Shown here in pieces: positions 6,518 through 20,213 of a stretch of DNA of 64,000 nt. A program made the position numbers and the translations under genes. The notes under the pieces are model-generated. The model was given only the letters and a program-made list of their open reading frames with translations, searched no databases and was not told where the DNA came from. Each line of letters starts with the position of its first letter. The stretch's first letter is position 1. The DNA lies in the IMG/VR virus record IMGVR_UViG_3300025887_000010, positions 32,001-96,000 of that record. One strand, given 5' to 3'. Source of the DNA: a virus.

Positions 6518-7675
6518 TCAGAAAAGATCGAGAGGGGCGGCAGGAACCTTTGATTTCGAGAGGACTTTCCAGAACTCATCGTACCATGAGTCTTCAGAGA
6601 AGTGCTTGCGTGCAGACTCAGCGATAGACTTTCTGTCATCAAACGATAGTGAGTTGACATATACGAGCTTGATCTTCAGGTCAAGTACCCACTCAGGATC
6701 ATCATATGCGACAGGTTTGACACCAAGGTCCGTCACCTGGTTGATGTAGTGATCGGCAGCATGAGTTTGACCTGCCTTGTCAACGAACGTGATCGGTATT
6801 CCACCAAATAGCAGTGTCTCGATTGCAATCAAACCAAGCGACTCATCGGGTCGAGCGACCAAACATGTCGAGCATTTCTGATACTCGAGCAGAAGCTGAT
6901 CTCTCGTTTCATTGTGATGAAGAACGGTGTTCTCAGATTTGTCGAGAGTCTTGATGATGTTCGGGAAGTCTGCACCGGAGACGTATGCGTCAAATTCGAT
7001 TCCAGCCTTTGCAATCTTTCCGAAATTCTTCTGTGGGTGGCATCGACCGACCATCAACGTTTTGCCTTCATTCGGCACGACATCCATTTCCCAAATCTTC
7101 GGATCCATTGTCGTGTAGACGTCAGCATCGTCAGAAATATAAGTGTGTGGCGGAGGATTGTCCATCGTATCAGAGAACTCGAAATGCTTTGCGCGAATCC
7201 ATGGTGAAGCATAGACTCGGCCACCATTCTCTGTGATGGTCATGCAATTCCTGACGATGCCCTGCAGGAACATCGGACTTGGTATCCAATCTGGGATCAT
7301 ATGGGTCGTTGGAATGAACTTCGAAATGGCAGCTGGAACTGTAGTCGTTGAAGCATTCGACCAACAGAAATCAGGATTGATGATCTTCGCCTGATCAATG
7401 TAGGCCTTTCCGACCCTTCGAGACATGGCGACTGCTTCCTTTGGTCCATGAAGTTCCAACACTTCGTCTCGACTCAACTCACTAACAGAGTGGAATGTCG
7501 CATATTCCAGGAAGACTGGATCAATCTTGCCAGTGCACAGAACGTGAACGTCAATTCCCTTCTTCTTAAGGATTTTGATCCACGAATGCTGACGAGCTTC
7601 GATGCCGTTGCGAGGCTTTCGGTGATCCTTGAACGCACCACCAGTGATGTGAGTCGAGACGATAAGGATTTTCAT
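6518..7675 (-). CDS. GT-B fold glycosyltransferase (GT4-like)
   Basis: MKILIV N-terminal strand, VGRCHPQKN, and ESLGLIAIETLLFGGIP (E-x7-E motif). Confidence 0.8.
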   Translation of the reverse strand: MKILIVSTHITGGAFKDHRKPRNGIEARQHSWIKILKKKGIDVHVLCTGKIDPVFLEYATFHSVSELSRDEVLELHGPKEAVAMSRRVGKAYIDQAKIINPDFCWSNASTTTVPAAISKFIPTTHMIPDWIPSPMFLQGIVRNCMTITENGGRVYASPWIRAKHFEFSDTMDNPPPHTYISDDADVYTTMDPKIWEMDVVPNEGKTLMVGRCHPQKNFGKIAKAGIEFDAYVSGADFPNIIKTLDKSENTVLHHNETRDQLLLEYQKCSTCLVARPDESLGLIAIETLLFGGIPITFVDKAGQTHAADHYINQVTDLGVKPVAYDDPEWVLDLKIKLVYVNSLSFDDRKSIAESARKHFSEDSWYDEFWKVLSKSKVPAAPLDLF

Positions 7676-8100
7676 GCACAAATGCCTTTCAGCATTTTGG
7701 AGTCAATAACGTACGACGAAAGATCGGGTGCTTTCCAACCTTCAGGCTTGATGGCATCAGGAAGGCCGAGAGGATTTGGACGACCAGGTTTGACACCAAT
7801 CTCCTTTTCCATATTGGCATCGTGAACCTCGATGAAAGCCCCAAGTGACATATCAGTGCCGATCAGAATGTTGAGAGTTCCGACGTTGAAATATAGACCA
7901 TCGATGAGTGCATCAACAATCTCGGCTGCATCTTTATCTGCGATTGCATTCTTCAGTTCAGTAAGCTCTTCTTCCATCATACGAACACGAAGTTCAATGA
8001 AAGCTTTAAGCTTCTCAGGGTCACTTGCGATCTCGTCGTAGCGGTTAACGTGACCCATCTTTTCATGGAATTCTTCCACTATGTCGAAAATGTTCATCAT
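7672..8100 (-). CDS. MazG-like (all-alpha) NTP pyrophosphohydrolase
   Basis: EEELTE...EIVDALID, EVHDANM.K, IKPEGWKAPDL. Confidence 0.85.
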   Translation of the reverse strand: MMNIFDIVEEFHEKMGHVNRYDEIASDPEKLKAFIELRVRMMEEELTELKNAIADKDAAEIVDALIDGLYFNVGTLNILIGTDMSLGAFIEVHDANMEKEIGVKPGRPNPLGLPDAIKPEGWKAPDLSSYVIDSKMLKGICA

Positions 8101-8357
8101 TCTTTGATCTCCTCTGGTTCATAGACCTTGTCGCCGATATTTGAAATTTGTGTTGTCAGCAAAAATGAATTCGCTGTGAGTTTGTTCTGAAACTGAACGA
8201 ACGATTTCACAAGCTCTGTGATGACAGGTGGCTCATTACCATCCAGAGCTTGAACTATCGTTCCGAGAGTGCTCGAAAGATTTTCGTTCAGTTCATCGAT
8301 TCCAAGGCTAGTATCGCGCAGCCTTGCGACGATCGTTTGCATTTCTTCAGGGCTCAT
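8097..8357 (-). CDS. Hypothetical helical protein
   Basis: RBS and ATGA coupling. Confidence 0.65.
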   Translation of the reverse strand: MSPEEMQTIVARLRDTSLGIDELNENLSSTLGTIVQALDGNEPPVITELVKSFVQFQNKLTANSFLLTTQISNIGDKVYEPEEIKE

Positions 8358-8368
8358 CCTATTTCCTT

Positions 8369-9253
8369 TCAGAGAAATTTGTCATAGGCTTTTTCGATCG
8401 AGAACGACTCGTTACCGAAGTGTTCATGGACCTTTGCGATCTCGTCGATTGTGGTCTTCTTATAGTCGCCGAGGAAGACTTCGAATGGCTTCGCTCCAGG
8501 CTGCTTCGTTTCGGTCATCGTATCAATTCCCATCAAGATCATTCCGAAATCGATGCGAATGTCTGTCATCTCCTCAAACGCCATCGCGTAAAGCGATATT
8601 TGACGTTTGTATCCACCAATGTCTTTCGCAGACTTCTCTTTGCGAGACGATTTGAAGTCGATCAGTGTGATGAGACCATTGAACTCGACATCGTATGCTC
8701 CTCCATCCTTGTTCAAAACGCCTTCGAGTGTGTAGTCCTCGTCGTATTCCCCAATACAGTCAACTCTACCAGCAATCTGAAGAACATCCGAATAGAGAGC
8801 ATGCTCCAAACAGTGAACGTTGTCGATTTTGTCGAGGTATGGACGAAGCTTCCTGAATAGACTCCATCCTCGCATGTGAGTGTCTTTGACGACCTCATTT
8901 CGAATGTAGAGTTCGGCCATATCGTGCATCGACGTACCACGAGTTCGGGCCTCATGACTGACGCGATCGGCTTCTTCTTCACCAACAGCATCTCTCCAAG
9001 CCTGAAGCCAACCATTCTCACCCTGAAGATCAGCAATCTGACCGAGTATCGTCGTTGCAGATGGATATGCGCGTTTCTCAGGATTGTCGTCAGTTGGTGG
9101 AATGATGTAGTAGCGCCCAGGGAATTTGCCTTCCTTGTACGCGTCGATGTTATGCACGTCTTTGCGAAATTTGAACTGATCCCAGTCGTGAGTGAATGGG
9201 ACCAGTCTTGGTTGTTGCTCAGCCGACTCTCTGAATTTCTTGAAAATACTCAT
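8369..9253 (-). CDS. PD-(D/E)XK (Cas4-like) exonuclease of T4-like phages
   Basis: YPSATTILG, RGTSMH, AGRVDC, IDFKSS, QISLYA. Confidence 0.85.
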   Translation of the reverse strand: MSIFKKFRESAEQQPRLVPFTHDWDQFKFRKDVHNIDAYKEGKFPGRYYIIPPTDDNPEKRAYPSATTILGQIADLQGENGWLQAWRDAVGEEEADRVSHEARTRGTSMHDMAELYIRNEVVKDTHMRGWSLFRKLRPYLDKIDNVHCLEHALYSDVLQIAGRVDCIGEYDEDYTLEGVLNKDGGAYDVEFNGLITLIDFKSSRKEKSAKDIGGYKRQISLYAMAFEEMTDIRIDFGMILMGIDTMTETKQPGAKPFEVFLGDYKKTTIDEIAKVHEHFGNESFSIEKAYDKFL

Positions 9254-9259
9254 GGTCTA

Positions 9260-9288
9260 GCTATATCACATCCTGCTCATCTTGTACA
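9260..9288 (-). promoter_or_regulatory. Early promoter (TGTACA-N17-TATAGC)
   Basis: Motif match inside the 3' end of the upstream gene. Confidence 0.65.
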
Positions 9289-9752
9289 ACAGTTTTTGGA
9301 TGAGGAATACGATGAGGATACGGTTTTGGTGGACACATGAAGTACGAGACATTCTCTTCGAAGTTCCGATTGTGTTGAATCATCCAATCTTCTTGACCTT
9401 TCTCCTTGAGGTGCTTGTTGATATCAGAGATCATCATACTGACGGTGCTCAGATCAGAACCGGACTCGAAAAGGGTGTCGTAGAACATGTTCGACCACAT
9501 CACATCTTTGCAACGACCATCAGGTGCGCACAACCAAAGATGTGAAAAGAGTCGGCGTTTGCGAATGACCTTCATTGAAATTCTACTATTTTTCGGAATG
9601 CCCATACCAAAGTTCGGATCGATTCCGATATTTATCAGCGCCATTTTGGTATGTTCGCTCATTTCGAGATGATACTCTAGAAGATTGAGAGCGTAATCCA
9701 CCTTCATCAGATCGTTTGGTAACTTGTTGATTTCGTCTTCGTACGGTCTCAT
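9261..9752 (-). CDS. Hypothetical protein
   Basis: ATGA-coupled to the glf stop; third gene of the GT-glf operon. Confidence 0.65.
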   Translation of the reverse strand: MRPYEDEINKLPNDLMKVDYALNLLEYHLEMSEHTKMALINIGIDPNFGMGIPKNSRISMKVIRKRRLFSHLWLCAPDGRCKDVMWSNMFYDTLFESGSDLSTVSMMISDINKHLKEKGQEDWMIQHNRNFEENVSYFMCPPKPYPHRIPHPKTVVQDEQDVI

Positions 9753-10786
9753 TTGAAGTCCTCTGCTGCTCGCATTGCTGAATTGACAGCTTGATCCATA
9801 TCTAAATAGGCATAAAGACCAAGGCGACCAATGAAGGTTATCGAGTATGGCCGCGCCATCTTCTTGTATTTTTCGTAGAGCTTACGATTCTCTCCGTCCA
9901 CATCTTTGACAGGATAGAATTTGCGATCACCATTTTCTTCAGCAGCACATGGCTCTTCCCACATTACGGCAGATGTTTCGGACGATCCATAGCTATTCGG
10001 AAGCTTCGACCACTCTGTGATCCGTGTGTATGGGCCAGTGTTAGTGAAGTTCACTGTTGCAGCCTGGAGAACATTCTCGAGTGGGAGTGTTGCATGATGG
10101 AACTTGAGAGAACGATACGGAAGGTGTCCATGGATGTAGTTGAAATACTCATCGATAGGCATCGAATTGAAAATCCAGTCCGCACTTGCGATGAAATCAC
10201 CACCGTATCCAGTTTTACCAAACTCCATAAAGTCGCAACCTGTCATAACATTGATGTTCTCATGATCGAGCATGTTTTCAACCATTTTGGTGTATCCATC
10301 CTTAGGAAGCACCTGAATGTCGTCGTTTGGGAAGTACAGCTCATTCATATCGTCACGAATGGGAACACGATTCATGATGCTCGGACTCACCCTTTCAAGT
10401 GACATTCCCCACATCTTCTCGGTGTAAGGACGGAAGAAGATGTCGATAACGTTTTCTTCGCCGACGATTTCTTTCGTTTCCTTGTTCACAGGAAGCGTGA
10501 CAAGACGTCCATCTTCAAGAAGAGCTTTGACCTTGTGCTCATATTTCACCCATTCCGTGAATCGGCTCAGAAACTCGAAGACTTTGACGTTGTTCGTGTG
10601 GAACAGGTGAGGACCATATTTGTGGATTCGATGTCCGTCATCGATCACATAATCAAAAGCGTTGCCGGCAACATGGTCACTCTTCTCCATGACGACGATT
10701 TTGTGTCCCTTTTCAGCGAGAAGACGAGCAACTGTTGATCCTGAAAGTCCTGCTCCGACGACAATGAATTTGCATTTTTTGCTCAT
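9749..10786 (-). CDS. glf: UDP-galactopyranose mutase (FAD-dependent)
   Basis: GAGLSG, AGNAFD, HKYGPHLFHT, FFRPYTEKMWG, RVPIR, PKDGYT, LPYRSL, YTRITE, FYPV, GRLGLYAYLDMDQAV. Confidence 0.95.
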   Translation of the reverse strand: MSKKCKFIVVGAGLSGSTVARLLAEKGHKIVVMEKSDHVAGNAFDYVIDDGHRIHKYGPHLFHTNNVKVFEFLSRFTEWVKYEHKVKALLEDGRLVTLPVNKETKEIVGEENVIDIFFRPYTEKMWGMSLERVSPSIMNRVPIRDDMNELYFPNDDIQVLPKDGYTKMVENMLDHENINVMTGCDFMEFGKTGYGGDFIASADWIFNSMPIDEYFNYIHGHLPYRSLKFHHATLPLENVLQAATVNFTNTGPYTRITEWSKLPNSYGSSETSAVMWEEPCAAEENGDRKFYPVKDVDGENRKLYEKYKKMARPYSITFIGRLGLYAYLDMDQAVNSAMRAAEDFK

Positions 10787-11898
10787 TTGCGTGCATCCAA
10801 AATTTTCTGGAGTTCTTCACGTTGAACTCGTTTCGTAAGTGGGTGTTTCTCATAGAGGCAGTCTTTCTGTGCTTTCGCAAGAGCAACTAGACCAGCTGTA
10901 TCGAGACCCTCGATTTTGTCGGCAGTGAGGTTTTCGTACGCTTCACCGTAGACTTCAGCTTCTTTCTGATCACAAAGCAGAATCGATCCTGCATCAGCAA
11001 CTTGAAGCGGACGGGCACGCCACCAACCAGAGCCAGCATGGCTGTACGCAGGCATCAGGCAACCCCATTGTTTGTTAAAGATGCGACACATTTCGGTCTC
11101 AGTGACTCGTTCGCATTTGTATTCGCCACGTGATGCACCGAAGAAGTTCACCTTCCATTCGACCTTCTTGCTCTTCATCCACTTACGTGTCTTGTTATGA
11201 ACGAGAGATGCGAAGTTCCATTCACGAAGCTTTTTCTCAGGACGAATGCCAATGGTGTCAGGCTCATCGAACATGTCAAGATCAGTGTCGTTTTCGAGAC
11301 CGAAATTGTTGTCAGGTCGACGATTTAGGTGGTACGGATTTGGGTTGTATGTGAAGACACGCTCACTTGGCCATTCGAGACTCAAGAGACTCAGATCGCC
11401 ACCAGCAAATGCGCTCATCAGAAGGCGATTCTTGCCATTGACAATGCTGTCGCAAGCATCCTTGTAGAACGATTCGTACTTCTGCACTTCCTCGAGTGAC
11501 TCCTTGCCACCCCAGTTCGACCACAGATAGTCGCGATAGCCATTTCCTTCTTCGAGCTGCTTCTTGTAGCCGATGATGTCTTTGAAGATACCAGGGAATT
11601 GCCAATCATCGAAAGCAACAATGCAATCTGGGCGAGCGCCGATAGCATACAGACCTGACCACAGATACTGTGTGAAGGCTGCTGTTGGGTGGACGATCGC
11701 AATCACGTCCTCATACTCGGAAAGGTCTTCGCCCAGTTTGACGACTCGTTGTTCGACTTCGTATCCCATTGCTTCGAGACCATTCACGAGTGAGTAGTGC
11801 GAAGGAACGATCTGCAAGCGAAGAAAAGCCGAGTGTGCATTTCGGTTGCATTGAGCTTTGTTCATTCCGGTGACGAGGATTTTCGGTTTTGCAGTCAT
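10783..11898 (-). CDS. T4 beta-glucosyltransferase-like DNA glycosyltransferase
   Basis: Colinear similarity to T4 BGT recalled from memory: IVPS...LEAMGYEV (TVPS...ISEMGLNV), AFDDWQFP (LFTDIRLP), VNFFGASR (IEFFGNAR), RARPLQVADAGSILLCD (TLRVWETMASDAVMLID). GGAG RBS before ATG 11898. Confidence 0.7.
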   Translation of the reverse strand: MTAKPKILVTGMNKAQCNRNAHSAFLRLQIVPSHYSLVNGLEAMGYEVEQRVVKLGEDLSEYEDVIAIVHPTAAFTQYLWSGLYAIGARPDCIVAFDDWQFPGIFKDIIGYKKQLEEGNGYRDYLWSNWGGKESLEEVQKYESFYKDACDSIVNGKNRLLMSAFAGGDLSLLSLEWPSERVFTYNPNPYHLNRRPDNNFGLENDTDLDMFDEPDTIGIRPEKKLREWNFASLVHNKTRKWMKSKKVEWKVNFFGASRGEYKCERVTETEMCRIFNKQWGCLMPAYSHAGSGWWRARPLQVADAGSILLCDQKEAEVYGEAYENLTADKIEGLDTAGLVALAKAQKDCLYEKHPLTKRVQREELQKILDARK

Positions 11899-11931
11899 AG
11901 GTATCTCCATAGAGGTTTTGTTCTTAAGTTC

Positions 11932-11960
11932 AGTGTATCACAATTTAGCCAGCTTGTACA
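11932..11960 (-). promoter_or_regulatory. Early promoter driving the BGT-like/glf operon (TGTACA-N17-TACACT)
   Basis: Motif match immediately upstream of the GT start. Confidence 0.7.
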
Positions 11961-12184
11961 CAGTCAATGCCATGTTTTTGCCATCTAATTGTCTCGATGG
12001 CATTCGCAAACACTTCGTGTTCGTTCATCTCGAAAAGGAGTTTCTCACGAAGTGGATGCTCGAAGTCTTCGACATCGGTACAGTGATTGCGGAAAATGTA
12101 TTGTCCGAATCTCACATTATTGTCGGCAGATTTCCACGCACGGAAAACTTCAACGAGTTCGGAATAGGTCTCAATCTTTAGCAT
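11945..12184 (-). CDS. Hypothetical protein
   Basis: MLKIETYSELVEVF...VRFGQYIF; overlaps the end of the upstream gene. Confidence 0.6.
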   Translation of the reverse strand: MLKIETYSELVEVFRAWKSADNNVRFGQYIFRNHCTDVEDFEHPLREKLLFEMNEHEVFANAIETIRWQKHGIDCVQAG

Positions 12185-12797
12185 CAGGTAGATCCAGGTC
12201 AAAGTATTCAAGTTCTTTCAGGGTGATGAACTGTGTATTTTGCCTCTTCTCACGGCGAGAAATATGATGATGACCACCAATCCAATAGTCGGGTTGATGA
12301 ATTTCGAAAAGCTCCTGAAGTATCTCGCGAGTGTTTGTGATTTCATGACCGAATTGATCTTCGACATACGATTGTGGAAAGTCGTGTGAGATGACCACTC
12401 GAGGCTTCGCAATTTCGTAACGGGTAAGTATGCTGAGAAACTTGTCTTCAGTGACTTCCTCATCAGGCCACCAATTTATGCCTGGTATAAGAACCTTTCC
12501 AGGATTGTCAGGCGTTTTCGCACCGCCGAAGTAGAAGATTGAGCGTTTCCTGTCGTAGTAGCCGTCTGAGATGTAGTTTCCCATTCCTTCAGCAATTTGT
12601 GGGTGGTCATGATTGCCTCTAATAAACAAATGACTGGGATTCTTGTTTACCCATTGAACGATTTCCACCATTTCATGCGGTCTGAAAAAACCGAATCCAA
12701 AGTCGCCAACCTGAATAGAGTTCTCAACGACTTCTGCAATTTCAAAGTATTCCTGAAACTTAGCGTGGACATCGCCAATAATTCGGACTTTGGTCAT
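12171..12797 (-). CDS. Calcineurin-like metallophosphoesterase
   Basis: GDVH, GDFG, RGNHD, SHD, GHHH. Confidence 0.88.
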   Translation of the reverse strand: MTKVRIIGDVHAKFQEYFEIAEVVENSIQVGDFGFGFFRPHEMVEIVQWVNKNPSHLFIRGNHDHPQIAEGMGNYISDGYYDRKRSIFYFGGAKTPDNPGKVLIPGINWWPDEEVTEDKFLSILTRYEIAKPRVVISHDFPQSYVEDQFGHEITNTREILQELFEIHQPDYWIGGHHHISRREKRQNTQFITLKELEYFDLDLPDAKD

Positions 12798-12820
12798 ATT
12801 GATCTCCTATTTCTTAATTC

Positions 12821-12849
12821 ATGATATCACATTTCGTGCATGATGTACA
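12821..12849 (-). promoter_or_regulatory. Early promoter (TGTACA-N17-TATCAT)
   Basis: Motif match upstream of an AGGAG RBS. Confidence 0.7.
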
Positions 12850-12935
12850 TAGTAAAGTGACTGTTGCCTCGTTAAACCTGGAGCTCGCTGAGTCTTACGA
12901 TCGTATTGACAATATAATATACATCAAACGACAAA

Positions 12936-12964
12936 GAGGAACTCAGCGATTCACTGAGTTCCCC
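12936..12964 (-). terminator. Intrinsic terminator in non-coding region
   Basis: GGAACTCAG/CTGAGTTCC stem followed by TCTTTGTCGTTT on the minus strand. Confidence 0.6.
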
Positions 12965-13021
12965 TGGTTAGATCAAGGTTGTCAATCTTGTCTTACATAT
13001 TTCAGAACAAACTTTCGAAGA

Positions 13022-13050
13022 ATTATATCATAGTGGAGGCTATAAGTACA
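13022..13050 (-). promoter_or_regulatory. Early promoter (TGTACT-N17-TATAAT) with no downstream ORF
   Basis: Motif match with perfect TG-A-TATAAT. Confidence 0.65.
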
Positions 13051-13116
13051 TAACCTTTATCAAACTTTTTGACATTTCAAAGAAAGATTTGGTCTTCTTC
13101 ATTCCACGTTTTCCAA

Positions 13117-13491
13117 CTACTTCTTTGTGCCTGGAGCAGAGGAGGTCAAGTGTTCCTCCGTCTCTTCGAGATACTCAAAGCTTCCATCAGTTGCTTCAAA
13201 GTTTCCCTTCAAAATCATCGACTTGATCCATTCTTCGTTAAGAAAACGATCGAAACAATCGATGATTTGACCATGAAGATGTGCAAAGGGTGAACAGAAG
13301 ATGATTCGATTCTGGTGGTATCTCGCAAAGAACCGAACATCTGCAATCTCGAATGAGACAAAGTCGACATTGCGGTTCAAATAGCCTTCAAGCTGAGAAT
13401 TCGTGCGATAATAGGAATGGAGAGGTACTCCAGAGATGTCGAGTGCAGTTCCGTCATCAGCAATGGTGACGTTTTTGTTGTAATGTCTCAT
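13117..13491 (-). CDS. Hypothetical protein
   Basis: ATGA-coupled ORF. Confidence 0.65.
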   Translation of the reverse strand: MRHYNKNVTIADDGTALDISGVPLHSYYRTNSQLEGYLNRNVDFVSFEIADVRFFARYHQNRIIFCSPFAHLHGQIIDCFDRFLNEEWIKSMILKGNFEATDGSFEYLEETEEHLTSSAPGTKK

Positions 13492-14093
13492 TTTTGGACC
13501 TTTTTAATTACGTTGAGCACCTTCTTAGAGAATGCGTATTGATCTTCGAGTCGTAGGGATTGGCGAAGAATTCGGTAAGCTCTCTTCGAAAGCAGCCCTT
13601 TCTCCTTCCGCAGTTCGCTGAGATCGACTTCTTCGACCTCACTGTGATACTTCATGGCAGACAGAATCGAAAGTTCACCAGAGATAACGCCATTCACAAT
13701 TCCGGTTTTGCCGTTCTTTTCGACGAGATTTGGCATCGCTCGAAAAGAATCACGAAGGAACATAAAGTTTTCCTCATGATCTGATTGTACGAACGATTGG
13801 TAGATGTCATGCAATTTGTCGACGACACTCGTTGAAACCTCGCTGTCGTAAATGTGAGGCATGTTCGAAGTCTTCGCGATGTTGTTGATGAAGAAGAACG
13901 CAAAGTAATACTCGTCGTTCATCTTCCTTACGATCTGCTTCAGGTTACGCTGTGCAAATCCTCTCTGTGCAGTCGACATCTTCGGATACTTGAACCTAGG
14001 AACGAGTTCCTGGTCGAGAGGAAGATCATGGTCTGCCACGAAGATCATTCGATATCCGTGAGCAGACCGAAAGAGATCATTCTTATCAGCCAT
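13488..14093 (-). CDS. Probable helicase loader (gp59-like)
   Basis: 201 aa, near gp33; FAFFFINNIAK and IVNGVISGELSILS weakly resemble T4 gp59. Confidence 0.45.
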   Translation of the reverse strand: MADKNDLFRSAHGYRMIFVADHDLPLDQELVPRFKYPKMSTAQRGFAQRNLKQIVRKMNDEYYFAFFFINNIAKTSNMPHIYDSEVSTSVVDKLHDIYQSFVQSDHEENFMFLRDSFRAMPNLVEKNGKTGIVNGVISGELSILSAMKYHSEVEEVDLSELRKEKGLLSKRAYRILRQSLRLEDQYAFSKKVLNVIKKVQK

Positions 14094-14799
14094 CGTCGTT
14101 CACGCGGATCGCCAAACCATTGTTGGTGGTCCATAGTGTGTGATAGCCGTATTTCGCGAGATGCTCCTTGACAGCACGTGCACTCTTCGTCACTCGATTG
14201 CCTTCGAAGTAGATGATAGAAGGACGAATCTTGTTCCAGTCGGTTGCAATGATTGCGTCGGCGTCTTCACCTTCGATATCAATCTGGATGATATCGGGTT
14301 GAGTCCCAGACGCGTTCACGAGAGACTCAATGGTCTGAGTCTTGAAGTTGAACTTCTCGATTGCGTCTTCGGCCTGGTCTTCTGGGTTCTGACGTGCTTG
14401 ATGGAACCAGTTTCGCAACTTCCCATAATGGATTGTTGAGACGCCGAGTGGTGCACGATATTCAGGCCAATCAGGTTTCGAGTATGTCCGTGCAACCTTC
14501 GACCAATATTCCTCCTTGATGCAAAAGATTTCGACATCTTCACCATCTGTCGACGAAACGATTGAAGGGATGATCTCGAAATCTTCATAGTCGATTTCAG
14601 CCATGTGATTGCGGATGATAGGATGAAGTGACGAGATTGGCTCGACGAGAATCAAGCTTGAGCGGTCTCGAAGTTGAGGAAGAATGCCGTAAAGCGGATC
14701 GTTGTATTTCGCATCATTTGCGCCGATGACCATCAAATCCAAATACGATTTCGAAGTCAAAAGAGTCATTATGGCTGCGTAGTATGGTGTCGTTCTCAT
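14086..14799 (-). CDS. FkbM-family SAM-dependent methyltransferase
   Basis: MVIGANDA, LILVEP, PDIIQIDIEGED, RPSIIYFE. Confidence 0.82.
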   Translation of the reverse strand: MRTTPYYAAIMTLLTSKSYLDLMVIGANDAKYNDPLYGILPQLRDRSSLILVEPISSLHPIIRNHMAEIDYEDFEIIPSIVSSTDGEDVEIFCIKEEYWSKVARTYSKPDWPEYRAPLGVSTIHYGKLRNWFHQARQNPEDQAEDAIEKFNFKTQTIESLVNASGTQPDIIQIDIEGEDADAIIATDWNKIRPSIIYFEGNRVTKSARAVKEHLAKYGYHTLWTTNNGLAIRVNDDG

Positions 14800-15044
14800 G
14801 ATATGTCCAGTTCTATGTGAGTGGATTTCGATTGCTTGAGCAAGTTGTTCTTTCTGGCTTCAGCAGAAACCCGTTCGATGAATGTTTGGGAGAACTTCAC
14901 CGTTTTGTGAATTTCCTCGTAATCTACATCGTGTTGCTCGCAGTAGTCCACAGCAGCATCAAAGAGTGAGTCGAACTCATTATCCGAGAAGTGCTGTAAG
15001 ATTTTCTGCTCGAAGTCAGATACGGTTTTTGGTGATGCACCCAT
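14796..15044 (-). CDS. gp33: Late transcription co-activator
   Basis: LFDAAVDYCEQHDVDYEE...ERVSAEARKNNLLK matches the gp33 pattern. Confidence 0.8.
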   Translation of the reverse strand: MGASPKTVSDFEQKILQHFSDNEFDSLFDAAVDYCEQHDVDYEEIHKTVKFSQTFIERVSAEARKNNLLKQSKSTHIELDIS

Positions 15045-15727
15045 TACGAGGGATCAGGAATGAGATTGAAGTTGCGCTCATAGAAGTGCATGTTCTGCAC
15101 TTGCCAGTGAAGTGTACCGATCTCTAGATCGAAGTCAAAAAGTGTGTGTGCATTCAAATCACAGACAAGCATGCTCATGACATGTATCTGCCATGCACGA
15201 TCATTTCGATATCCAGCCCAGGCATCGTTCGAACGCATTTGAACTACAGCATGAAGCTTACCATCACGAATCTGGTAGGAAACAGCATTGGTGCAGATAA
15301 AGTCAGACATACCGTTGTGAGCATACTCGACCCAAATAGATGGACGGTTGTAGATCATGACGGCTCGACGTGAACTCGGATTTTTCGCAAGTTCCTCTAA
15401 AACTTTGGCGTATTGATGATGGTATAACGGCGAAAAGATCAGCAATCCGTAATTGGAGTTGATGAGACCGTCACTGGATGAGATGTCTTGCCAGATTTTT
15501 GGAACGATGTCGTAATATCTACCGATATCGTTAACAGAACGACTCATCGATTCGTACCAATCGATTTCGGCATCGATGTATTTCGTGTTAAGATCACCGA
15601 ATATGGTTGCTTCATCAGCTTCAAACGATGCTCCGAGGATTTCGATTACGTTCGTTCCACCGAGATTGACGATGTCACCAGCAGCTTTCTTCTCGATGAA
15701 TAGGTTACGGATATCTTGTACGTTCAT
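15044..15727 (-). CDS. gp42: dCMP hydroxymethylase (thymidylate synthase fold)
   Basis: Colinear with T4 gp42: IEILGASFEADE..IFG, EIDWY, INSNYG, NPSSRRAVMIYNRPS, GMSDFICTN (catalytic Cys), MRSND, GYRND (Asp of cytosine-specific enzymes), MHFY. Confidence 0.93.
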   Translation of the reverse strand: MNVQDIRNLFIEKKAAGDIVNLGGTNVIEILGASFEADEATIFGDLNTKYIDAEIDWYESMSRSVNDIGRYYDIVPKIWQDISSSDGLINSNYGLLIFSPLYHHQYAKVLEELAKNPSSRRAVMIYNRPSIWVEYAHNGMSDFICTNAVSYQIRDGKLHAVVQMRSNDAWAGYRNDRAWQIHVMSMLVCDLNAHTLFDFDLEIGTLHWQVQNMHFYERNFNLIPDPS

Positions 15728-16116
15728 TGGACGCTCTCCTCTTCTTCTGACAATTTGCGATTGAAGACATCAGCCTGTAGGTCTTGGCCGTCGATCTCTC
15801 TGTTGATGAACGCAGCCATGAAGCTTGCGTAGTTGACCATATCCATCAGGGTGTCTTCGACGGATTCGAAAACTGGAGCGTTATTGTTCGATTCCCATGT
15901 TTCGATCAGTGACTGAAGCCGAAGCTTCTTCGCATGGATGATCTCTTCGATCGTCTTGATGCCTGACGGATAATAGTCAGCTTGCTTGACGCGAGAGTTT
16001 GGATTTTGGTAATCCTGACCCTTGAGTCGTTGAAGTTCGATGCATTTCTGCAGGAACATAACCGAGTAGCGCTCTTTCGATACGCCGATGGCTTCGAGTC
16101 GGTTGGTTGTAGACAT
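15724..16116 (-). CDS. Nucleotide-modification-associated domain 1 (DUF1599-like all-alpha pyrophosphatase fold)
   Basis: K..DY, K..RL, ESVEDTLMDMVNYA; coupled directly upstream of gp42. Confidence 0.72.
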   Translation of the reverse strand: MSTTNRLEAIGVSKERYSVMFLQKCIELQRLKGQDYQNPNSRVKQADYYPSGIKTIEEIIHAKKLRLQSLIETWESNNNAPVFESVEDTLMDMVNYASFMAAFINREIDGQDLQADVFNRKLSEEEESVQ

Positions 16117-17313
16117 TCACATTTCTCCTTTGTCAAACCGCATTTTCAAGAATTCTGGGTGGCGAAGACGACCGGCTGGAGTGTACTCCATGAATTCCGC
16201 TTCGCATTCTTCACCGATCAACTGATCACGAATTTCCCAGAGATATTCGCGTTGCCTATCGGAAAAGCCTCCGCCAATTTTCGTTGTGGTGCCTTTCTGG
16301 GTCTTAACTATCAACGCACCAAGCTTGCCTTTGAGGCGACCTCGTCCTTCATGAAATCCGGTGACTTCGAAAGAGTCTTCAACAAGAGGCTTGACCTTCA
16401 TCCAGTCGAGTGTGCGCTTGAATGAGTACTTGCCCTTCTTCTTCTTGAGGATTGCACCTTCATGACCGGCTTTGCGATACCGATTGTAGGCAGCTTCAGC
16501 TTCTTCGAGAGAGTTCACAATCTCATGTTCGGCGAGTGGAGTCACTAAGATCATTGATTTCAGAGCTGCATATCGTTCTTCGTATTCGCGAGTGCTTTTG
16601 CGAGACTTGAATTCTTCCATTGTGATTGCATCGAAGAGTTTCAGGCTAGAAAGGACTGCGTCTGAAGTGCTGCGATGGATAACACCAACTGAAAGGTTGA
16701 AGTCACCACCATCAGTGATTGCTTCACCATCGAAGACCATGTTGGGATACGCAGAAAGTTCATTGAGAATTTCCGGATCGATATTGTAGAGAGGCTTGCC
16801 GTTTCTCGAAAGAGTTTCAGTGGCTCCATGTGCATCTACAAGAACGACACAGCGAACTCCATCGAATTTCGGCTGAGCGTAACAAGGGAATTCAGTTTTG
16901 GATTTCGTGTAGGACCCAGCCAATTGAAGGCTAAAGGTCTTGTACGCGTCTTTGTAGACGGTACGGAACGATTTACCACCAATTCCGAGTTGGTATGACT
17001 GAAATCGCCCAAGAATCGAGTTGGTCACATTCAGCTGCAAGTCGGAGAAATCTTCGCAGTTATTGCGAAGCCATTTGAAGTCGGACTCTCCCAAGGCCGT
17101 GAGGATTTGTTCATCGGTGATGGCAGATTCGACATTTGGAAGGGTTGGGCGAAGTTTTGAGACTCCGAAGTTGTGGAATGGATCAAATGACCAGGTGATG
17201 ACTTGCACGGTGTGTGCATCAATCTCACGAAGAGCTTCAATTTTTGCATTGGTTCCTTTTGTGGAACCAAGCATTGATAGATCGCGATGGATAAGTTCGA
17301 ATGGATTCATCAT
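16117..17313 (-). CDS. gp30: ATP-dependent DNA ligase
   Basis: QPKFDGVR, FDGE, EGAILK, WMKVKP, IGGGFSD, LRHPEF. Confidence 0.93.
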   Translation of the reverse strand: MMNPFELIHRDLSMLGSTKGTNAKIEALREIDAHTVQVITWSFDPFHNFGVSKLRPTLPNVESAITDEQILTALGESDFKWLRNNCEDFSDLQLNVTNSILGRFQSYQLGIGGKSFRTVYKDAYKTFSLQLAGSYTKSKTEFPCYAQPKFDGVRCVVLVDAHGATETLSRNGKPLYNIDPEILNELSAYPNMVFDGEAITDGGDFNLSVGVIHRSTSDAVLSSLKLFDAITMEEFKSRKSTREYEERYAALKSMILVTPLAEHEIVNSLEEAEAAYNRYRKAGHEGAILKKKKGKYSFKRTLDWMKVKPLVEDSFEVTGFHEGRGRLKGKLGALIVKTQKGTTTKIGGGFSDRQREYLWEIRDQLIGEECEAEFMEYTPAGRLRHPEFLKMRFDKGEM

Positions 17314-17325
17314 ATTGTCCTTTGT

Positions 17326-17607
17326 TTATAGTTCCACTATATCATACATAGCACGCATTGTAAACAAGAAAATTGTCAACGCTATTCGTGAAGGATGACA
17401 CCTGACTTGAGTGTGACGCGAATTCGATACTTGACGTACGGACCAACTGGTGGATTTTTTGGAAATCACAGGACCAGTGTAGCGCATAATACGACCTTGA
17501 ATTCGAATTCCGTCATTTCTCGAATATGCTGAAACTGTGGTTGTTCCTAACATATTCAGTCTCTTTCTAGTTCTCGCTTTACCGAGAAGGTAATCAGCTT
17601 TGGCCAT
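17326..17607 (-). CDS. Possible basic hypothetical protein
   Basis: AGGAAC upstream of ATG (MAKADYLLGK...), but the 3' end runs through the ligase promoter. Confidence 0.3.
   Translation of the reverse strand: MAKADYLLGKARTRKRLNMLGTTTVSAYSRNDGIRIQGRIMRYTGPVISKKSTSWSVRQVSNSRHTQVRCHPSRIALTIFLFTMRAMYDIVEL
17336..17364 (-). promoter_or_regulatory. Early promoter for ligase-Nmad1-gp42-gp33-FkbM operon (TTTACA-N17-TATAGT)
   Basis: Motif match. Confidence 0.7.
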
Positions 17608-17636
17608 AATTTCTGTTCCTAAAGTGTAGTCCAAGT

Positions 17637-18341
17637 CTACTCAGAAGATTGCTTCTTGAGGATAAGTTTCAAAATTTGATCGACAGTCTGGACACTTTCG
17701 ACCTCGTGATCGTCGATTTCAAGTTCGAAATCTTCCTCGATGAGTATATGGATTTCGACACAATCCAAACTGTCAGCTCCCAAATCAGTGTGGATGTCTG
17801 AATTGGGGTGAACGAGATCGATATCAACCATGAGATGGCTTGCGAGAATACTTTTGATACGGGTAAGAAGACTGTCGTTTTCGACTTCCTTCACTGGTTT
17901 ATCATCAGTGATTGTCATCGGGATGATCGACGATTCACGATCTCCGAAAATATATAGGTTTGGGTTCTTCCAGCGAGCTTCGAATTCCTCGTTCGGAATG
18001 TAGAAGATGCGATCAATCCCAGCTTTGAATAGCTTGGAGATGCATCCTCCACATGGGAAACCAGTTACGTAGGCATCACATCCTTCGACACGAGTACCGA
18101 ATTGAGCAGCATTCAGGAGTGCATTCTCTTCAGCGTGGATTGAAAAGACAAGACGATCGTCGCGTTGTAGATTTTCAACTGCGTCATCATCGATACCTGG
18201 ACAATTTCCATTCCATCCAGTAGAGATGATGTGGTGTGACTTGGAGGCAATAACACATCCAACATGAGCACCGTTATGTTTCGAATTTTGCGATGCAAGA
18301 GATGCAACACACATTGGGTAGGTTGTGATGCTCTTCATCAA
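17637..18341 (-). CDS. cd: dCMP deaminase fused to a C-terminal acyl carrier protein domain
   Basis: HAEENA and PCGGC zinc motifs, then in frame RIKSILASHL...DLGADSLDCVEI...EEDFELEIDD...TV (ACP; Ser codon at 17769-17771). Confidence 0.88.
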   Translation of the reverse strand: MMKSITTYPMCVASLASQNSKHNGAHVGCVIASKSHHIISTGWNGNCPGIDDDAVENLQRDDRLVFSIHAEENALLNAAQFGTRVEGCDAYVTGFPCGGCISKLFKAGIDRIFYIPNEEFEARWKNPNLYIFGDRESSIIPMTITDDKPVKEVENDSLLTRIKSILASHLMVDIDLVHPNSDIHTDLGADSLDCVEIHILIEEDFELEIDDHEVESVQTVDQILKLILKKQSSE

Positions 18342-18596: not shown

Positions 18597-18787
18597 TGTA
18601 CACACAAAAATGGCGAGCACGAGGCTCGCCATTTCTTTTATAAATGTTGCTTTAGACGATTACAGCATGACAATCTCCCCTTATTCTAAAAGCGTTTGAA
18701 AGACGATTTCAAAAGTTTCGATAGTTAAGATATATCACACTCTGTACGTCTTGTACACACAAAAATGGCGAGCACGAGGCTCGCCAT
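18597..18787 (-). repeat. 36-bp direct repeat (18597-18632 and 18752-18787): terminator hairpin fused to the -35 box of an early promoter
   Basis: Identical TGTACACACAAAAATGGCGAGCACGAGGCTCGCCAT in both copies; GGCGAGC/GCTCGCC stem followed by TTTTTG on the minus strand; -10 boxes at 18574-18579 and 18729-18734. Confidence 0.9.
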
Positions 18788-18813: not shown

Positions 18814-20133
18814 TTAGAACAGGATACCAGTCACGCGGAACAAGCGGTAGAACTTGTTGGTCCGTGCTACGACTGCGCCGTTCGTGTCTGCCAGAGGGTT
18901 GACAACGAAACCGGCCCGTGTCTTGAAGAACATGACTGGCTGACCCGATGTTGGGGACACAGTTTCAACGCTCCAGACTGGGACGTATGGGCAGTAGAAT
19001 GCACCAGCTGCATATTCGGCATCGCCTTTCCAACCAACCATGCAGAAACCTGCGTTGGGGGAAGAGACTTGCGCACGGTCGTCACGGTAGATGCGCACTT
19101 TGCCCATCAGCATGCCGACTGCAGTCGTGGTGTCAGTGATGACCTCAGATGCGCCGGAGAACTGGTTGTTCGCAGGGCTGAGTTCACTGATGAAGCCGGA
19201 GTTGGCGAGCAGGTTGTAGGTCTTCGTGTCAACCACGGCAAAGTTACCATGACCGGTACGAGTGTCAAACATGATCTGCGAACATTCATGCAGAATGCGC
19301 ATTGCCAAGATACGACCTTTCTCACCAATCCACTGACCGTCGGTGTCAGCGTTCAAATCGTATACGCCAGGAGTGGTTGTGTCGGAGCAACCCAGAACTG
19401 CCGAGATGTACAACTTGCGAAGCGTTTCGTAGTTGATTTCGGAAGTCAGCTGTTCGGACATCATCGAGCCGAACATGGATTTGCCGTCGACACCGTGTTG
19501 TGCTGCAAGGTCCTGAATCATTTCCATCGAGAAGTTCGACATCAATGCGCGGGTCTTGGCTTGCACAGGGACGGAGTCCACAGTCATGGCGACCTGAGCG
19601 GTCACGTCGTCTTCGCCTTCGCCACTGGACATGAACCCACCAGTCGTAAAGCCGGAACCGATACCAGTACCAGCGTCGGCAGTTGGATCAGAGGCGCGGT
19701 CAGTGGCAACAACAGCAGCTTCGCGAGCGCCGGCAGAATCGAGACCAGTGAAGTCAGCTTGTGTGTTGTTGAGCGCAATTTCAGCGCCAGATTGGTTATT
19801 GAACCGTGGACGCCATGCGAAAGCAAGACCGGTTGGACCAGTAAGTGGTTGAGTACCAACAAGCTGGTTACCCAGAATCTGTGGACCCATCCGGCGAACC
19901 AGAGAGATTACCACCTGGTCATAGCCAGAAACGCCGCCAGCAGTGTTTGTCGGTGCAGCTTCTTGGAAGACGCTCTTCTGAGAGGCCAGGAAGTTGCGTG
20001 TGTTTTCCAGCATACGGGCGATGCCCATCTGCTTGGTTTTGTCCTTGACAGGCTCCATCGTGTCGTCCTGTGCTTCAAGCACTTTCTTCCACTTTTGGGC
20101 AAGGAAATGGTCGTTTTCACCATAAAATTCCAT
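18814..20133 (-). CDS. gp23: Major capsid protein
   Basis: ISLVRR, VGTQPLTGPTGLAFA, KTRAL, FYCPYVP, QPVMFFKTR; AGGAG RBS before ATG 20133. Confidence 0.96.
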   Translation of the reverse strand: MEFYGENDHFLAQKWKKVLEAQDDTMEPVKDKTKQMGIARMLENTRNFLASQKSVFQEAAPTNTAGGVSGYDQVVISLVRRMGPQILGNQLVGTQPLTGPTGLAFAWRPRFNNQSGAEIALNNTQADFTGLDSAGAREAAVVATDRASDPTADAGTGIGSGFTTGGFMSSGEGEDDVTAQVAMTVDSVPVQAKTRALMSNFSMEMIQDLAAQHGVDGKSMFGSMMSEQLTSEINYETLRKLYISAVLGCSDTTTPGVYDLNADTDGQWIGEKGRILAMRILHECSQIMFDTRTGHGNFAVVDTKTYNLLANSGFISELSPANNQFSGASEVITDTTTAVGMLMGKVRIYRDDRAQVSSPNAGFCMVGWKGDAEYAAGAFYCPYVPVWSVETVSPTSGQPVMFFKTRAGFVVNPLADTNGAVVARTNKFYRLFRVTGILF

Positions 20134-20182
20134 CGTGTTTTCTCCTAAGGGTGTTGGATCATTTGTTGCATGATCATTCGTA

Positions 20183-20189
20183 TATTTTA
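20183..20189 (-). promoter_or_regulatory. Candidate late promoter TAAAATA upstream of gp23
   Basis: 50 nt upstream of the gp23 start; the motif recurs before late genes. Confidence 0.55.
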
Positions 20190-20213
20190 CTCGTGCTGGC
20201 ATTCGATTTTAGA

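Follow-up and report, generated by a model that had tools for sequence, protein, structure and literature searches.

Modified and glycosylated cytosines have been described in more than one group of phages, and the enzymes that make them differ from system to system. In phage T4, a dCMP hydroxymethylase (gp42) and a dCTP-removing enzyme (gp56) act together with two DNA glucosyltransferases, AGT and BGT, and the gene for the latter (b-gt) lies near gene 42. A GT-B enzyme acting on 5hmC is found in TET/5mYOX clusters (PMC8256090; bioRxiv 10.1101/2023.12.21.572611). For RL38J1, a member of the Pootjesviridae, the published description reports DNA that carries up to three hexoses on 5-hydroxycytosine (5hoC), together with three glycosyltransferases (PMC13326640). 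Phage 25, one of the Aeromonas phages of the Straboviridae, has been listed with genes 42 and 56 but without glucosyltransferases (PMC2993671).

The locus described here belongs to a T4-like, freshwater phage whose capsid protein is up to 53% identical to Pootjesviridae capsids. The window, that is, the whole stretch of DNA that was analysed, comprises 64,000 nt (positions 32,001 to 96,000 of IMGVR_UViG_3300025887_000010), and the region under study spans window positions 6518-18341. We consider it rather likely that the genes found here form the core of a T4-like system of cytosine replacement and glycosylation, with a gp42-type enzyme making hmC, a MazG-type dCTPase, a BGT-like glycosyltransferase using UDP-Galf, and a GT4 enzyme adding an extra sugar. 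We judge the cytosine hypermodification system to be real; its product is probably hmC bearing galactofuranose, an unusual sugar, and possibly a further sugar as well.

Gene content of the region

A preliminary description of this DNA attributed nine genes to cytosine modification, and all nine proved to be intact minus-strand open reading frames at the positions given below. Genes unrelated to the pathway lie between them, namely a PD-(D/E)XK exonuclease (8369-9253), a gp33-type late coactivator (14796-15044), and a DNA ligase (16117-17313). To call the set complete, and to place it within 12 kb, was an overstatement, since further pathway genes are encoded beyond the region: GalE and the gp1-type dNMP kinase for hm-dCMP lie outside both region and window, and ThyA and DHFR, like the kinase confirmed in the contig, are also outside the region. 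The kinase, ThyA, and DHFR, along with the hydroxymethylase and dCMP deaminase, are shared with T4, and the kinase is an orthologue of RL38J1 gp219 (35% identity). A TviB-like NDP-sugar dehydrogenase is also encoded in the genome.

The preliminary description placed the genes in one early region; promoter-like sites are no commoner there than in shuffled sequence. Three metatranscriptome studies contain the region, and the capsid-gene bin reaches a depth of 42-74 in metatranscriptomes versus 2.75 in the DNA run, a difference to be taken as a hint only. Gene linkage was surveyed in 80 related viral contigs (IMG/VR loci), within up to 10 kb on each side of the BGT-like glycosyltransferase gene.

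Predicted synthesis of hydroxymethyl-dCMP and removal of dCTP

The thymidylate-synthase homologue at 15044..15727 (minus strand) matches PDB 1b49 at 6e-60 and aligns with T4 gp42 at 52% identity; its identity to the 5-hydroxy-dCMP synthases RB69 gp48 and RL38J1 gp216 is 20-21%. Signatures that tell hmC from 5hoC enzymes (criteria taken from PMC13326640) can be read directly in its active site. The motif DFICT includes the catalytic Cys and the change L143->D, and MRSND...RND keeps D169 and carries N177->D, the hmC signature. The 5-hydroxy-dCMP signature D169N, present in the 5hoC-making gp216, is absent from the window enzyme, whereas RB69 and RL38J1 read MRSQN. Among the 74 loci with a thymidylate-synthase gene near a member of the BGT-like family, all those with a readable motif have MRSND...ND and DFxCT. 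The signature test thus bears out the proposed conversion of dCMP to hm-dCMP, and the gene is, as judged from its sequence, a T4 gp42-type dCMP hydroxymethylase making 5-hm-dCMP. Neither a TET enzyme nor a C5 methyltransferase was found in the contig; in contrast to the TET/5mYOX systems, hmC would be made here before replication, at the nucleotide level.

Removal of dCTP appears to depart from the T4 scheme. The contig yielded no homologue of gp56, but it is about 83% complete, so that such a gene, or further glycosyltransferases, could lie in the missing part. In its place are a MazG-like enzyme and Nmad1, neither of which has sequence similarity to gp56. The former, a MazG/PRA-PH-like all-alpha NTP pyrophosphatase (7672..8100, minus strand; PF01503, 1.5e-9, above the Pfam cut-off), has as its nearest solved relative DR2231, a MazG-like NTP-PPase (2.7e-5), and its gene overlaps the start of the GT4 gene by 10 nt. 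Its orthologue in RL38J1 is gp218 (44% identity), encoded between the 5-hydroxy-dCMP synthase and the dNMP kinase at a distance of two genes from the former. In 41 of the 80 loci the MazG-like gene falls within the gp42 cluster. The earlier suggestion was that Nmad1 and/or MazG removes dCTP in place of gp56; for MazG this is plausible, given that gp56 was not found and that the gp218 orthologue belongs to a modification cluster; specificity for dCTP is the predicted part of it.

Nmad1/DUF1599, a helical protein (15724..16116, minus strand; PF07659 at 23.3 bits, just below the cut-off of 25), is closely tied to gp42. The end of its gene and the beginning of gp42 have 4 nt in common, the two genes share the same stretch in 59 of the 80 related loci, and in the 39 non-redundant loci measured Nmad1 is directly upstream of gp42, with a gap of mostly -16 to +13 nt. 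Both Nmad1 and the MazG-like protein match phrog_18404, at positions 161-252 and 49-139, respectively. A fold search with Nmad1 gave weak matches (Z <=6), several all-alpha NTP-PPases among them, and the protein is a candidate accessory or second NTP-pyrophosphatase domain. RL38J1, by contrast, has no Nmad1 match.

The dCMP deaminase (17637..18341, minus strand; PF00383, 1e-18, residues 10-114) is fused in frame to an acyl-carrier-protein domain (PF00550, 1.9e-8, residues 161-227), with no stop between the two and with NCBIfam ACP models also matching. It occurs within the gp42 cluster in 54 of 80 loci and would provide dUMP for dTMP supply and balance the dCMP pool.

Glycosyltransferases and the probable donor sugar

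The BGT-like enzyme (375 aa; 10783..11910, minus strand) is without a Pfam match. Its AF2 model (pLDDT 89) has a GT-B fold, and T4 BGT is the closest structure in the PDB (Foldseek 9e-7; VIA Z 18.6; rmsd 3.7 over 300 residues), with T4 AGT at Z 16.4. The N-terminal 61 columns are in register with BGT at 26% identity, but overall identity is only about 12%, by sequence the protein falls outside the BGT family, and generic GT-B enzymes reach Z 14-16.5, so that acceptor specificity rests on gene context.

That context is extensive. A gp42-type thymidylate synthase lies within these flanks (up to 10 kb on each side) in 74 of the 80 loci, an arrangement like that of T4 b-gt, and the same-strand order MazG-Nmad1-gp42-(deaminase)-(GalE)-GT-(Glf) is kept in the IMG/VR loci and in a 159-kb contig. 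Phage C48C1 has no gene of the thymidylate-synthase family, and there a TET/JBP dioxygenase stands directly upstream of a homologue of the glycosyltransferase (36% identical) paired with Glf. The same pair (29% and 37% identity) is carried by Aeromonas phages 25, Aes012, Aes508, and phiAS4, which are cultured phages; phage 25 is thus a relative with the pair although listed as lacking glucosyltransferases. Aes012 also has a gp42 homologue (51% identity), but homologues of MazG and Nmad1 were not found in it. Its structure, and a conserved linkage to two routes that make hmC independently of each other, therefore support the BGT-like enzyme and Glf as originally proposed, and the 375-aa protein is a predicted DNA glycosyltransferase acting on 5hmC.

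Glf, a UDP-galactopyranose mutase (9749..10786, minus strand; PF03275, 5e-55, plus NAD_binding_8), scores 290 bits against the TIGR00031 cut-off of 304 and is 34% identical to a Pootjesviridae Glf. The Glf start and the glycosyltransferase stop overlap by 4 nt. Glf is present in 44 of the 80 loci, and in 41 of these it directly adjoins the glycosyltransferase gene, the gap being -30 to +6 nt; the genes are also adjacent in Aes012, FBB1, and C48C1, in the closest relative (L007), and in L008. The breadth of the pair, which persists across 29-36% glycosyltransferase identity and both hmC routes, has to be read together with the tree. Of the 80 related glycosyltransferases, 34 have no Glf next to them, and Galf specificity is therefore not intrinsic to the family; these 34 form one clade (SH-aLRT 96), and Glf adjacency switches once, so co-inheritance counts as one evolutionary event rather than many. 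The separate Glf-less clade is consistent with a donor switch. Unlike T4, the phage brings its own donor-sugar enzymes, and the combination of Glf with its own GalE (an equivalog match, 310 bits, encoded outside the window) points to galactofuranose rather than glucose. We infer that UDP-galactofuranose, the proposed donor in RL38J1 as well, is most likely the donor here.

The second glycosyltransferase (387 aa; 6518..7681, minus strand) matches phrog_30124 glycosyltransferase at 2e-44. Its family profile matches the GT4 structures 8x3q/7fg9 at 8e-9, and it has an E-x7-E motif made up of the invariant residues E278 and E286, features of a putative GT4-type, retaining, GT-B enzyme. Its phage homologues are confined to Pootjesviridae, including RL38J1 gp151 (26% identity, full length, 2e-28), with no match in any Aeromonas phage record. 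In PMC13326640, gp151 is a predicted DNA glucosyltransferase, its role there being itself only predicted. Because of this orthology, transfer of a second or alternative sugar, as first suggested, is plausible and is probably the role of this candidate, the target being the conjectural part.

Alternative explanations

The preliminary description went further, from galactofuranose and a second sugar to O-methylation by an FkbM-family SAM methyltransferase, yielding methyl-hexosyl-hmC and several modified species. The gene in question (14086..14799, minus strand; PF05050 at 28.7 bits against a cut-off of 22.7; atlas score 0.97 to FkbM clusters) lies between gp33 and a 201-aa gene, overlapping both neighbours at start and stop codons; it belongs to the gene string that includes gp42 and is covered by RNA-library contigs. 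Phage proteins also repeatedly combine FkbM-family folds with HtrL_YibB and GT2 domains, which are sugar contexts. Yet L007, the closest relative, lacks the gene while otherwise keeping gene order, with gp33 abutting the 201-aa gene, and none of the 80 related loci has it; no homologue was found in 50,697 phage records, and population variants break within the gene at 14255. Methylation of DNA sugars is accordingly unsupported, we know of no methylated DNA-linked sugar, and the full pathway seems to us quite unlikely. The calcineurin-like metallophosphoesterase (12171..12797, minus strand; PF00149, 9e-10; phrog_1649) is kept upstream of the glycosyltransferase in L007 only, is absent from 80 of 80 related loci, and has no PDB relative. 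Both genes are left outside the proposed pathway.

If the sugar on hmC were instead glucose or galactopyranose, with Glf serving another purpose or a minor fraction, the Glf-less clade of 34 loci would be readily accommodated, and T4 BGT does use UDP-glucose. The base-proximal galactose reported for RL38J1 is of unproven ring form in the available portions of the source (PMC13326640). The overlapping and widely conserved GT/Glf pair, the confinement of Glf-less enzymes to one separate clade, and the phage's GalE make this unlikely. It is improbable, too, that only hmC synthesis concerns DNA while Glf, FkbM, and both glycosyltransferases act on host surface polysaccharide or virion proteins, in an auxiliary role or in superinfection exclusion. 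LPS/EPS pathways are where the Glf, GT4, and FkbM families typically belong, the TviB-like dehydrogenase would fit, and about 65% of phage glycosyltransferase contigs in one survey lie away from base-modification genes (bioRxiv 10.1101/2023.12.21.572611); but the BGT-like enzyme accompanies gp42 or TET/JBP, its best solved matches are both T4 DNA glucosyltransferases, and the GT4 homologues include that of RL38J1, whose DNA is hexosylated. Resemblance to Pootjesviridae in capsid, GT4, and MazG might suggest that the sugars sit on 5hoC, which RL38J1 uses along with Glf. The hmC motifs and far closer identity to gp42 than to gp216 speak against this, as does the lack of homologues of gp215 and gp237, leaving a 5-hydroxy-dCMP product highly improbable. 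The two phages differ further in that the first glycosyltransferase has no similarity to gp215 and that there is no gp214 homologue.

Proposed pathway

In the favored reading, galactofuranosylation of hmC, the gp42-type enzyme would turn dCMP into 5-hm-dCMP before replication and the gp1-type kinase would phosphorylate it, while the MazG-like pyrophosphatase, probably with the co-inherited Nmad1, would remove dCTP. The deaminase, ThyA, and DHFR would supply dTMP. Once the DNA has been replicated, the BGT-like GT-B enzyme would glycosylate hmC in it by attaching a hexose to the hydroxymethyl group. The donor, most likely UDP-galactofuranose, would be formed from UDP-glucose by GalE and the translationally coupled Glf, and GT4 would probably add a second or alternative sugar. 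Galactofuranosyl-hmC would then be a variation on the classic strategy by which T4 evades restriction.

The modification gene string and its surroundings

The phage is T4-like, and the window spans positions 32001-96000 of a single viral contig of 126,862 bp with a CheckV completeness of about 83%. Its Gp23-type major capsid protein (18814-20202, minus strand) is 53% identical to the capsids of Pootjesviridae phages that infect Rhizobium and Sinorhizobium, and the window also encodes a gp33-type late coactivator (14796-15044). A megablast search with the region gave no DNA-level matches among phage records, and the DNA of the phage was detected in freshwater metagenomes.

From 18574 down to 6518 runs an unbroken series of minus-strand genes, many of them joined by overlapping stop and start codons. 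All nine genes that the preliminary description had assigned to cytosine hypermodification are indeed found in this string. Other genes within it are unrelated to base modification, namely those for a PD-(D/E)XK exonuclease (8369-9253), the gp33 homologue and an ATP-dependent DNA ligase (16117-17313), and a 201-aa product of the string drew only scores below 0.8 in an Atlas search. Single-sequence searches of the PDB gave nothing useful for this protein, for either glycosyltransferase (GT), or for the Nmad1, FkbM and metallophosphoesterase proteins.

Promoter and terminator scans of the window found such elements no more often than in shuffled sequence, and the T4 late-promoter motif TATAAATA occurs in a single copy, which is the chance level. 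Two identical copies of a perfect hairpin, ATGGCGAGC-ACGAG-GCTCGCCAT, sit at 18608-18634 and 18765-18787, about 155 bp apart, in the gap separating the capsid gene from the modification gene string, and the pair looks like terminators for both strands. Another terminator-like hairpin, with a 14-bp stem, is found at 12935-12965 on the minus strand and likely divides the string into two units, 18574-13117 and 12797-6518.

Contigs at about 100% identity to the region are present in three metatranscriptome studies. The depth of the bin holding the capsid gene was 42 and 74 in two of these studies against 2.75 in one DNA run, and although contig depths are a weak measure, this suggests that the region is truly transcribed. 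Contigs from two RNA libraries (X4 and X6) part from the window sequence at 8985, inside the exonuclease gene, and at 14255, inside the FkbM gene; these breaks mark population variants and indicate mosaic strains within the lake population.

A gp42-type hydroxymethylase and its nucleotide supply

The TS homologues of phages RB69, DLP3 and RL38J1 produce 5-hydroxy-dCMP, and such synthases can be told by an Asn where E. coli ThyA has D169 (PMC13326640, published in 2026). RL38J1 belongs to the Pootjesviridae and is thus related to the present phage by its capsid. In the same work, a change of N177 to Asp marks the use of dCMP rather than dUMP, and a change of L143 to Asp or Glu marks water access and a hydroxymethyl product (PMC13326640). 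The protein encoded at 15044-15727 matches the T4 dCMP hydroxymethylase structures over residues 2-223 (PDB 1b49, E 6e-60), and in alignment its identity to T4 gp42 is 52%, against no more than 20-21% for RB69 gp48 and RL38J1 gp216. The catalytic Cys equivalent to ThyA C146 is present (DFICT opposite DFMCT in T4), the SDFIC motif places an Asp at the L143 position, Asp is retained at 169 (MRSND), and Asp at 177 (YRND or RND) points to dCMP specificity. Because of the match to 1b49, the identity and these four residues, the protein is a gp42-type dCMP hydroxymethylase, predicted to make 5-hydroxymethyl-dCMP. The enzyme named earlier for the step from dCMP to hmdCMP was thus correctly identified, both by its identity to T4 gp42 and by its hmC signature.

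The reading of this TS homologue as a 5-hydroxycytosine (5hoC) synthase is rejected, since the D169N signature seen as MRSQN in RB69 and RL38J1 is absent and identity to those enzymes is low.

The remainder of the T4 nucleotide scheme is encoded as well: dCMP deaminase (17637-18341, minus strand) lies in the string, and a gp1-type dNMP kinase (PF21448; positions 26913-27509 of the whole contig), ThyA (contig positions 24403-25188) and DHFR lie outside the window. The deaminase reading frame continues, stop-free, into a full acyl-carrier-protein domain (PF00550, 1.9e-8; also NCBIfam ACP models), with no obvious ribosome-binding site ahead of its internal Met; on a related 159-kb freshwater contig (L008) the deaminase has 155 aa and no such extension.

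Proposed removal of dCTP

No homologue of gp56 was detectable when RB69 gp56 was searched against the whole contig by tblastn. The string encodes two proteins that bear on this step. One of them, at 7672-8100, is a MazG-like protein (PF01503, 38.6 bits against a Pfam cut-off of 21.3) whose closest solved relative is the MazG-like NTP pyrophosphohydrolase DR2231 (2.7e-5). It is 44% identical to RL38J1 gp218, which is encoded between the modified-dCMP synthase gp216, followed by a homing-endonuclease insertion, and the dNMP kinase gp219. Among 80 IMG/VR loci that carry the first transferase discussed below, a MazG-like gene stands first in the gp42 cluster in 41.

The other is an Nmad1/DUF1599 protein (15724-16116, minus strand), which scores 23.3 bits against PF07659, whose cut-off is 25. 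Its homologue P0218 passes on re-scan with 28.1 bits, and both P0193 and P0218 carry PF07659 in precomputed annotation. Nmad1 was detected together with gp42 in 59 of the 80 loci and lies immediately upstream of gp42 in the 39 loci where the distance was measured, mostly overlapping it or within about 15 nt. The two proteins match different halves of phrog_18404, which hints at fused MazG-Nmad1 forms; no genuine fusion was found among the longer Nmad1 homologues.

Comparisons of Nmad1 with RB69 gp56 and with the MazG-like protein by hhalign, and of the MazG-like protein with gp56 by BLASTP, were all insignificant. Modelled, Nmad1 forms a helical bundle. Its family profile matched nothing in the PDB, and fold searches gave nothing significant (Foldseek E about 1 or worse; Z of at most 6 in the wide VIA search); helical hairpins dominate the rows returned, and the all-alpha NTP pyrophosphatases 2p06, 4qgp, 1yvw, 2oie and 3c90 fall within the noise. 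The MazG-like protein is probably the dCTPase, and Nmad1 might, more tentatively, serve as a partner or accessory in dCTP removal.

A transferase similar in fold to T4 beta-glucosyltransferase

The first transferase is a 375-aa protein (10783-11910) for which sequence searches of Pfam, NCBIfam and the PDB found no match. Its family numbers 667 proteins at E below 1e-5 and is represented at 261 confirmed IMG/VR loci. An AlphaFold model built from 34 homologues (pLDDT 89.4, pTM 0.87) has a GT-B fold, and its top solved match is T4 beta-glucosyltransferase (BGT, CAZy family GT63; Foldseek E 8.9e-7). BGT likewise ranked first among 999 chains in the VIA comparison, with Z 18.6 and rmsd 3.7 over 300 of 351 residues; T4 alpha-glucosyltransferase reached Z 16.4 and generic GT-B enzymes Z 14-16.5. 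The model thus has two Rossmann domains in a GT-B arrangement that superposes on full-length BGT.

At the level of sequence the protein falls outside the BGT family: hhalign gave a probability of 8.8% and aligned the N-terminal 61 columns alone. Those columns are in register with BGT at 26% identity in a profile comparison that is itself insignificant. The catalytic Asp of BGT is D100, which follows strand 4. The family of the 375-aa protein has an invariant D97-D98 directly after strand 93-96 (strand 4), and by position this pair may correspond to Asp100. The family shows no relation by hhalign to RL38J1 gp215.

The genomic context of the family is telling. A gp42-type TS lies in the same stretch as the GT in 74 of the 80 IMG/VR loci, and these TS hits carry the hmC signature wherever the motif is readable. 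On a single strand, the order of the cluster in these loci is MazG, Nmad1, gp42, (dCMP deaminase), (GalE-like epimerase), GT and (Glf). In this strong context the BGT-like GT is predicted to act on 5hmC in DNA. Searches of the contig by tblastn with TET/JBP and C5-methyltransferase queries found none.

A gene resembling C5 cytosine DNA methylases (PF00145, 4e-21) lies immediately after the GT or Glf gene on the 159-kb freshwater contig (L008:12102-13298) and in 77 of the 80 loci. Such a gene is surprising in phages whose DNA should contain no unmodified C, and it is missing from the contig studied here. In Aeromonas phages the GT is followed by the gene for a 348-aa protein (Aes012 gene 228, L002:9925-10971), which matches no Pfam family and lacks homologues in the present genome; it could be a second transferase.

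Glf, GalE and the probable donor sugar

The start of the next gene, glf (9749-10786, minus strand), overlaps the stop of the GT gene. Its product is a UDP-galactopyranose mutase (PF03275, 5e-55, 186.8 bits) with the FAD-binding N-terminal Rossmann motif (PF13450, 66 bits), and its score against TIGR00031 (290 bits) is slightly below the equivalog cut-off of 304. GT and Glf likewise stand side by side in the closest relative locus (L007, GT 66% identical), on the 159-kb freshwater contig, in T4-like phages of Aeromonas (25, Aes012 and phiAS4 among them), in Erwinia phage FBB1 and in phage C48C1. In C48C1, a member of the Kyanoviridae, the pair belongs to a three-gene cluster (L001:9561-13008) in which a TET/JBP dioxygenase (PF12851, 3e-17) lies directly upstream of GT and Glf, and a search of that phage found no TS-family genes; the cluster looks like a post-replicative form of the same sugar modification. 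Given the gp42-type TS in most IMG/VR loci and the dioxygenase in C48C1, the GT-Glf pair is therefore found with both known phage-DNA routes to a 5-hydroxymethyl pyrimidine.

In a phylogeny of 85 GTs a single change explains Glf adjacency: all 34 GTs that lack Glf group in one clade (SH-aLRT 96), and the two distant outgroups both have Glf beside them. This shows one event with stable co-inheritance, not repeated co-evolution, and a single donor switch would leave such a pattern.

The phage encodes a UDP-glucose 4-epimerase, GalE, besides Glf (contig positions 19645-20616, minus strand, outside the window; TIGR01179, 310 bits, above the cut-off), so the route from UDP-Glc to UDP-Galp to UDP-Galf is feasible with phage enzymes. 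GalE and Glf would carry out these two conversions, and the 375-aa GT would then attach galactofuranose to hmC, with acceptor and ring form both inferred. The earlier proposal that the BGT-like GT works with Glf to add the first sugar is supported, with the nature of the sugar and its point of attachment predicted. No demonstration of galactofuranosyl-hmC appeared in the literature searched, and UDP-Galf has so far merely been proposed as a donor, for the 5-hydroxycytosine phage RL38J1 (PMC13326640).

The closest relative locus has an extra 326-aa gene directly after Glf (L007:7285-8265), and at this place the window holds just a 163-aa ORF; the 326-aa gene is present in one of the 80 other loci. 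Elsewhere on the contig (G000:C1:114762-116117, plus strand, outside the window) lies a TviB/WbpO-like NDP-sugar (UDP-HexNAc) 6-dehydrogenase (TIGR03026, 305 bits), which could supply an acidic sugar donor and has no identified partner transferase.

Possible further decoration of the sugar

A 387-aa protein (6518-7681) is rare, with 9 representatives among 1.84 billion proteins, and its phage homologues come solely from the Pootjesviridae (23 records, including RL38J1 gp151). The single sequence matches the C-terminal Glycos_transf_1 domain of Pfam below the cut-off (E 0.0095). Its family profile matches the GT4 structures 8x3q, 7fg9 and 5d00 at 8e-9 to 4e-8 and keeps both glutamates of the E-x7-E motif (E278 and E286) invariant, and by this profile evidence the protein is a GT-B enzyme of GT4 type. 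RL38J1 gp151 is predicted to be 'glucosyltransferase 2', and RL38J1 DNA carries galactose with one or two glucoses (PMC13326640). By analogy with that prediction in another phage, it is plausible that the 387-aa protein adds a second or alternative sugar. A search of the contig for GT2 (PF00535) family members found none.

The FkbM methyltransferase is a genuine member of its family: it scores 28.7 bits against PF05050 (Methyltransf_21), above the cut-off of 22.7, with an Atlas score of 0.97 and a structural TM of 0.82, and 29.2 bits against TIGR01444, below 37.7. The suggestion that it O-methylates DNA-linked sugars is not supported. In the closest relative locus FkbM is absent and gp33 directly adjoins the 201-aa gene, none of the 80 GT-bearing loci has it, the phage collection contains no homologue, and the RNA contigs break within it at 14255. 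The gene looks like a recent insertion, and its context argues against a conserved role on a DNA-linked sugar. The metallophosphoesterase is common to this phage and the closest relative only.

The fullest product envisaged, an O-methylated galactofuranosyl-(hexosyl)-5-hydroxymethylcytosine in virion DNA, extended by the GT4 enzyme, methylated by FkbM and coexisting with several other cytosine species, is improbable; if true, a methylated sugar on DNA would be seen for the first time. To speak of a complete toolkit within 12 kb was likewise too strong, because membership is unsupported for FkbM and the metallophosphoesterase, and because the dNMP kinase and GalE that are needed lie elsewhere.

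Relation to known systems

The system works like hmC glucosylation in T4, with which it shares the base, and its transferase is only distantly BGT-like. It also works like that of RL38J1, whose Pootjesviridae type of MazG and GT4 it has; the base differs, since the present enzyme bears the hmC signature whereas RL38J1 gp216 makes 5-hydroxy-dCMP. The system is thus a mosaic: its base is of T4 type, its GT distantly BGT-like and its MazG and GT4 of Pootjesviridae type, and the phage encodes GalE and Glf itself. GT-B enzymes adjoining TS homologues, epimerases and secondary GTs have already been seen in viromes (bioRxiv 10.1101/2023.12.21.572611).

Genes 42 and 56, without a glucosyltransferase, were reported for Aeromonas phages 44RR, 31 and 25 (PMC2993671). 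Phage 25 and its kin carry the same GT-Glf pair as the phage studied here, and this pair, with its predicted GT role, would fill the Aeromonas glucosyltransferase gap. The GT family, tightly linked to hmC synthesis, is also found in cultured Aeromonas, Stenotrophomonas and Erwinia phages, so the prediction of galactofuranosyl-hmC is testable in existing phages. Glycosylation of hmC is the textbook means by which phages protect their DNA from restriction and CRISPR, and whether a given type IV nuclease or glycosylase still recognises the DNA depends on the sugar attached. If the prediction is true, the known DNA-modifying enzymes would gain one that uses a new donor sugar.
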